A stretch of 870 nucleotides of DNA from Escherichia coli (GTDB taxonomy: Bacteria > Pseudomonadota > Gammaproteobacteria > Enterobacterales > Enterobacteriaceae). Positions 1 through 870 of this stretch are shown here, one piece after another. The position numbers were made by a program, and so were the translations under genes. Position 1 is the first letter of the stretch. Each line of letters starts with the position of its first letter. The stretch lies in assembly GCF_003334815.1 (NCBI RefSeq), contig NZ_QOWO01000114.1. The stretch is one strand, 5' to 3'. The notes below the pieces were generated by a model. That model did not search any database. It saw nothing but the letters and a program-made list of their open reading frames with translations, and was not told the origin of the DNA.

Positions 1-26
1 TGTAGATTCAATTGGTCAACGCAACA
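1..26. repeat. Left terminal inverted repeat (IRL) of IS30
   Basis: Seen in sequence: the 5' terminus TGTAGATTCAATTGGTCAACGCAACA is the IS30 left end as I recall it. The right-end partner (ending ...GATTGAATCTACA in the reference) is outside the window, so the inverted-repeat relationship cannot be shown here. The 26-bp extent is taken from the literature, not measured. Confidence 0.8.
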
Positions 27-49
27 GTTATGTGAAAACATGGGGTTGC

Positions 50-54
50 GGAGG
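50..54 (+). promoter_or_regulatory. Shine-Dalgarno / ribosome-binding site for the transposase gene
   Basis: Seen in sequence: GGAGG at 50-54, 8 nt upstream of the ATG at 63 (spacer TTTTTTGA). An in-frame TGA at 60-62 closes the frame immediately upstream, so ATG 63 is the first possible start. Confidence 0.65.
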
Positions 55-62
55 TTTTTTGA

Positions 63-870
63 ATGAGACGAACATTTACAGCAGAGGAAAAAGCCTCTGT
101 TTTTGAACTATGGAAGAACGGAACAGGCTTCAGTGAAATAGCGAATATCCTGGGTTCAAAACCCGGAACGATCTTCACTATGTTAAGGGATACTGGCGGC
201 ATAAAACCCCATGAGCATAAGCGGGCTGTAGCTCACCTGACACTGTCTGAGCGCGAGGAGATACGAGCTGGTTTGTCAGCCAAAATGAGCATTCGTGCGA
301 TAGCTACTGCGCTGAATCGCAGTCCTTCGACGATCTCACGTGAAGTTCAGCGTAATCGGGGCAGACGCTATTACAAAGCTGTTGATGCTAATAACCGAGC
401 CAACAGAATGGCGAAAAGGCCAAAACCGTGCTTACTGGATCAAAATTTACCATTGCGAAAGCTTGTTCTGGAAAAGCTGGAGATGAAATGGTCTCCAGAG
501 CAAATATCAGGATGGTTAAGGCGAACAAAACCACGTCAAAAAACGCTGCGAATATCACCTGAGACAATTTATAAAACGCTGTACTTTCGTAGCCGTGAAG
601 CGCTACACCACCTGAATATACAGCATCTGCGACGGTCGCATAGCCTTCGCCATGGCAGGCGTCATACCCGCAAAGGCGAAAGAGGTACGATTAACATAGT
701 GAACGGAACACCAATTCACGAACGTTCCCGAAATATCGATAACAGACGCTCTCTGGGGCATTGGGAGGGCGATTTAGTCTCAGGTACAAAAAACTCTCAT
801 ATAGCCACACTTGTAGACCGAAAATCACGTTATACGATCATCCTTAGACTCAGGGGCAAAGATTCTGTCT
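63..870 (+). CDS. insI: IS30 transposase (DDE-type, InsI), N-terminal 269 codons; 3'-partial, continues beyond the window
   Basis: Seen in sequence: ATG at 63 with upstream SD; frame open with no stop to position 869 (870 is the first base of the next codon). Translation: MRRTFTAEEKASVFELWKNGTGFSEIANILGSKPGTIFTMLRDTGGIKPHEHKRAVAHLTLSEREEIRAGLSAKMSIRAIATALNRSPSTISREVQRNRGRRYYKAVDANNRANRMAKRPKPCLLDQNLPLRKLVLEKLEMKWSPEQISGWLRRTKPRQKTLRISPETIYKTLYFRSREALHHLNIQHLRRSHSLRHGRRHTRKGERGTINIVNGTPIHERSRNIDNRRSLGHWEGDLVSGTKNSHIATLVDRKSRYTIILRLRGKDSV. Established knowledge: this matches the IS30 transposase, which has two N-terminal HTH motifs and a C-terminal DDE core. Not in the ORF track because no stop codon falls inside the window. 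Confidence 0.93.
   Translation, partial: MRRTFTAEEKASVFELWKNGTGFSEIANILGSKPGTIFTMLRDTGGIKPHEHKRAVAHLTLSEREEIRAGLSAKMSIRAIATALNRSPSTISREVQRNRGRRYYKAVDANNRANRMAKRPKPCLLDQNLPLRKLVLEKLEMKWSPEQISGWLRRTKPRQKTLRISPETIYKTLYFRSREALHHLNIQHLRRSHSLRHGRRHTRKGERGTINIVNGTPIHERSRNIDNRRSLGHWEGDLVSGTKNSHIATLVDRKSRYTIILRLRGKDSV

Follow-up and report, generated by a model that had tools for sequence, protein, structure and literature searches.

[quoted passage not shown] The junction inserts at near-palindromic hot spots or beside an IS30 end, and a 2-bp duplication is left behind by host repair (PMC9333248). The same paper, citing Dalrymple 1987, places a strong promoter, Pjunc, at the IRL-IRR junction, and describes such junctions as highly unstable (PMC9333248). 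In Escherichia coli K-12 MG1655, the copy IS30A (NC_000913.3 270541-271761) is 1221 bp long and encodes the transposase InsI1.

The DNA analysed here, which we call the window, is a single stretch of 870 nt, and we regard it as almost certain that it corresponds to the first 870 bases of an ordinary 1221-bp E. coli IS30 element, with IRL at bases 1-26. Nothing contradicts the identification as IS30. Complete E. coli genomes contain copies, annotated as 'IS30-like element IS30 family transposase', that match the window at 100% identity; these identical copies have a full length of 1221 bp, of which 870 bp fall in the window while the last 351 bp of IS30, including IRR, lie outside it. The first base of K-12 IS30A corresponds to base 1 of the window; the 26-bp IRL, the ribosome-binding site and the transposase frame are common to the two, and 868 of the 870 bases are identical. 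The two differences are at position 217, which is A in the window (His52) and G in IS30A (Arg52), and at position 843, which is C in the window (Leu261) and G in IS30A (Val261). With these two substitutions the window copy is an allele of the element, and a very common one, whose protein is WP_001254876.1. Copies of this allele in E. coli ATCC 11775, S88 and WCHEC020031 are identical to the window at all 870 bases, and the combination 217A/843C is that of the top-scoring complete genomes. Among 53 near-identical full-length copies, mostly from metagenome contigs, 44 carry 217G.

More distant relatives were found in E. coli p027_SK3a (90% identity), on a Klebsiella plasmid (94%) and on an Aeromonas plasmid (76%); these and IS30H have the same gene layout as IS30. 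In IS30H and the other IS30-family relatives, IRL is identical or matches at 25 of 26 positions, whereas the coding part has diverged by 6-24%, and the window does not belong with these diverged variants.

The element is widespread. Any match to the window was found in 3,660 of the 5,426 complete E. coli genomes, and in 3,278 of them at least 80% of the window is covered at one place; 4,069 records match it at 99% identity or more, and a carrying genome has a median of 2 copies and a maximum of 23. The window sequence also occurs in 1,210 plasmid records, mostly from Escherichia, with others from Citrobacter, Enterobacter, Salmonella and Klebsiella. A scan of species-representative genomes with IRL bases 1-40 returned a single contig, from Pantoea piersonii, where the IS copy ends after 409 bases and diverges from base 288. 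That scan looks incomplete if ATCC 11775, an exact match, was included as expected, and the host range was not drawn from it.

The left end and the transposase gene

The coordinates of the features recognized in the window are collected in Table 1.

Table 1. Features located in the 870-nt window, with strand and the basis of each assignment
Feature	Position	Strand	Basis
IS30 IRL	1..26	+	match to IRR, flank divergence at base 1, start of curated IS30A
TAGATT, likely Pjunc -10 hexamer	3..8	+	inference from the modelled IRR-NN-IRL junction
Site reported as protected by an N-terminal transposase fragment	9..35	.	literature (Stalder et al. 1990, via PMC7780238)
GGAGG, ribosome-binding site 8 nt upstream of the ATG	50..54	+	read from sequence
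ORF-A, transposase gene of IS30, 5' part (codons 1-269 of 383)	63..870	+	open frame, NCBIfam match
Helix-turn-helix DNA-binding domain (Pfam HTH_38), residues 58-98	234..356	+	E=7.9e-19
Reported antisense promoter region of IS30	730..760	-	literature (PMC9330008)
First part of the DDE catalytic core, residues 229-266 (Pfam rve, weak match)	747..860	+	E=0.0099, truncated by window end

Bases 1-26 of the window read TGTAGATTCAATTGGTCAACGCAACA. When they are compared with the reverse complement of IRR, taken from copies identical to the window, 23 of the 26 positions match, after which there is no similarity. At four distinct chromosomal sites the flanking sequence changes exactly at base 1 and the element itself is identical. 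When chromosomal loci were combined with 120 metagenome contigs carrying IRL bases 1-40, we counted 37-38 distinct upstream flanks, every one of them ending at base 1. Base 1 is the real end of the element and not a chance resemblance to one. The preliminary description had taken base 1 as the first base of IRL, with no host flank, and both the start of IS30A and the divergence of all 37-38 flanks at that base bear it out. It had also held that the window could reveal neither the duplication at its target nor the gene interrupted, nor the presence of a partner copy, which is correct, because the window holds no flank and there are zero host bases before base 1.

The terminal repeat is well conserved, being invariant in the 94% and 90% relatives and retained at 25 of 26 positions in the 76% relative from Aeromonas. 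Bases 30-42, which lie outside the 26-bp repeat, are unchanged in all five aligned relatives, in line with the reported protection of bp 9-35 by an N-terminal fragment of the transposase (Stalder 1990, as quoted in PMC7780238). In the mechanism described in the literature, the N-terminal helix-turn-helix region of the transposase binds IRL and the 3' end is cleaved at the tip. The same tip may have a second role once the ends are joined: since a modelled IRR-NN-IRL junction places TTGACA, contributed by IRR, 17 nt upstream of TAGATT, the -10 half of Pjunc is likely supplied by IRL.

Downstream of the repeat, the frame opened by the ATG at position 63 continues for 269 codons without a stop up to the end of the window. 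In the identical copies the full transposase gene is annotated as 1152 nt, and its translation of 383 residues was confirmed. Despite the truncation of the protein, the NCBIfam model NF033563 ('IS30 family transposase') was matched with 126.5 bits against a cut-off of 80. In addition to the helix-turn-helix domain listed in Table 1, a second and weaker HTH_38 match was obtained at residues 6-41 (E=0.008). Only the beginning of the DDE core falls in the window, the rest lying beyond base 870. The motif HWEGD occupies residues 233-237, and its Asp237 (nt 771-773) is a candidate for the first catalytic Asp.

Other signals were sought within the same 870 nt. A review puts the antisense promoter of IS30 at 'bases 730-760' (PMC9330008). 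Our scan for consensus promoters and terminators gave zero sites on either strand of the window, so that the resident transposase promoter is not visible by that criterion, and a search of Rfam at a permissive threshold found no RNA family in the window. A perfect 13-nt inverted repeat, with arms at 174-186 (TTCACTATGTTAA) and 691-703 (TTAACATAGTGAA) that are 504 nt apart, lies inside the transposase gene, and a repeat of this length was reached in 5 of 2000 dinucleotide shuffles. It was considered as a conserved structure and rejected as probably due to chance: neither the 94% nor the 90% relative retains it intact, and the 76% relative recovers it only in part.

Target sites and neighbours of other IS30 copies

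Copies of the element elsewhere were used to characterize its targets. Of 31 distinct flank pairs, 18 showed an exact 2-bp duplication, where chance would give 1 in 16; the pairs without a duplication may have arisen by recombination between copies, or by chimeric assembly of metagenome reads across the repeat. When the flank preceding IRL was compared with the reverse complement of the flank following IRR, the half-site profile showed T at -13, an A-rich stretch over -12 to -7, then G and C at -5 and -4 and R and Y at -2 and -1, respectively. The same profile was present in both half-sites, which makes the target palindromic and fits the description of IS30 hot spots as 'nearly palindromic' (PMC9333248).

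The commonest targets are inside IS3-family elements of the IS911/IS600 type, adjoining their A AAA AAG run, and many IS30 insertions are located a few bases from this frameshift run. In K-12, IS911A is interrupted by IS30A, and IS30D is flanked by IS911B on one side and an IS600 fragment on the other. Copies of the WP_001254876.1 allele have inserted into an IS911-type element next to the fec genes and carry a GT duplication; those of ATCC 11775 and WCHEC020031, which are identical to the window, occupy the fec-adjacent site equivalent to that of K-12 IS30D, the commonest setting of the identical copies. The junction between the IS911-type sequence and IRL at this site occurs in 795 of the 5,426 complete E. 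coli genomes. The preliminary description had expected that any novelty would be in the flank. This expectation has a low prior, as the usual neighbours of IS30 are fragments of other IS elements, the equivalent of the IS30D/fec site among them.

We also observed that one IS911-type target (…AAAAAAGGCT[AC]CGCGCTCTTG…) carries IS30 in either orientation on different contigs (L001 and L018, and others). In five further metagenome contigs (L022, L040, L062, L063 and L083), the IS30 copy is itself interrupted, at bases 45-610. The interrupting sequences are presumably IS911-type or IS629-type ends, and interruption by such apparent IS ends points to mutual nesting of IS elements. An internal fragment of IS30, 280 bp long and unannotated, was found in the P1-type Escherichia phage phi456 (OR339795.1, L127 2501-2780), where it corresponds to IS30 bases 835-1114 with 98.9% identity. 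The sequence directly adjoining this fragment is, we assume, an IS1 end.

Limits of the window and possible surroundings

The start of the window at base 1 and its stop at 870 are best regarded as products of the way the sequence was cut or assembled and not as a property of the element, because 870 is not an IS end, a known breakpoint or the neighbour of a frequent SNP. As to which of the two processes was responsible, we lean towards cutting, either of the window itself or through a reference record of the element, such as a database entry or an annotated mobile-element feature beginning at the IS terminus, in which case the length of 870 would be arbitrary. Curated records annotate IS30 from exactly the base at which the window begins, and 870 falls in the middle of a codon of the transposase gene, at no biological landmark; the allele of the window (217A, 843C), however, differs from that of K-12 IS30A. 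The preliminary description had raised the possibility of a contig broken at a repeat. It is rather unlikely that the window is, or is part of, a contig of collapsed repeats from short-read assembly, in which a de Bruijn node shared by several copies starts at base 1. Collapse as such is plausible, since genomes that carry IS30 have a median of 2 copies and a maximum of 23, and assemblers do break in this region: the metagenome flank contigs stop mostly 50-55, 76-80 or 126-127 bases inside the IS, as a result of k-mer overlap, and one contig (L007) begins exactly at base 1. That contig is nevertheless just 1 of the 120 metagenome contigs carrying IRL bases 1-40; one further contig has 8 bases before base 1. 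A collapsed contig should, moreover, run to base 1221 or to a point where the copies differ, yet 870/871 is the site of no recurrent breakpoint and no frequent SNP. The breakpoints in other copies are scattered over 45-1162 with no match to 870, and no variant at 871 was seen in other IS30 copies.

The sequence immediately before base 1 could in principle hold the IRR of a second IS30, forming an active (IS30)2 junction, or the cargo of a composite transposon. Dimers are indeed formed by IS30, which also uses its own ends as targets (PMC9333248), and several copies are present on some plasmids. We nonetheless consider such an arrangement very improbable. In a search with the IS30 right end linked through 2 bp to the left end, at a threshold of 80% coverage, zero IRR-2bp-IRL junctions were found among about 14,000 places with an IS30 end in the 5,426 complete genomes, and an IS30 end is absent from all of the 37-38 distinct upstream flanks. 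The reported instability of these junctions (PMC9333248) also argues against one at this locus, and it is expected of an unstable intermediate that none should be fixed in 5,426 finished genomes. If IRR or cargo did precede base 1, the locus would represent either a transposition intermediate that had been captured or a compound transposon that is new.

Four records exceeded 80% coverage in the junction search and were rejected as dimer junctions, being internally deleted mini-copies with their tips facing outwards. A mini-IS30 in yfhB of K-12 AG100 (L128 3005-3130) keeps both ends, bases 1-90 being followed directly by the final ~40 bp of IS30, and could be the assembly collapse of a full insertion. 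On plasmid pAA of E. coli 042 (L129 2501-3055), another mini-IS30 has bases ~1-415 joined to the last ~143 bp, again with both ends kept.

The significance of a start at base 1 is very small, for the observation describes missing information rather than a feature of the element; its practical use is as a caution that a window starting at an IS end says nothing about its insertion. Work on IS30 goes back to the 1980s, the window shows no departure from the known element, the settings in which identical copies usually occur are well known too, and the copy that it holds is a common allele, already known.
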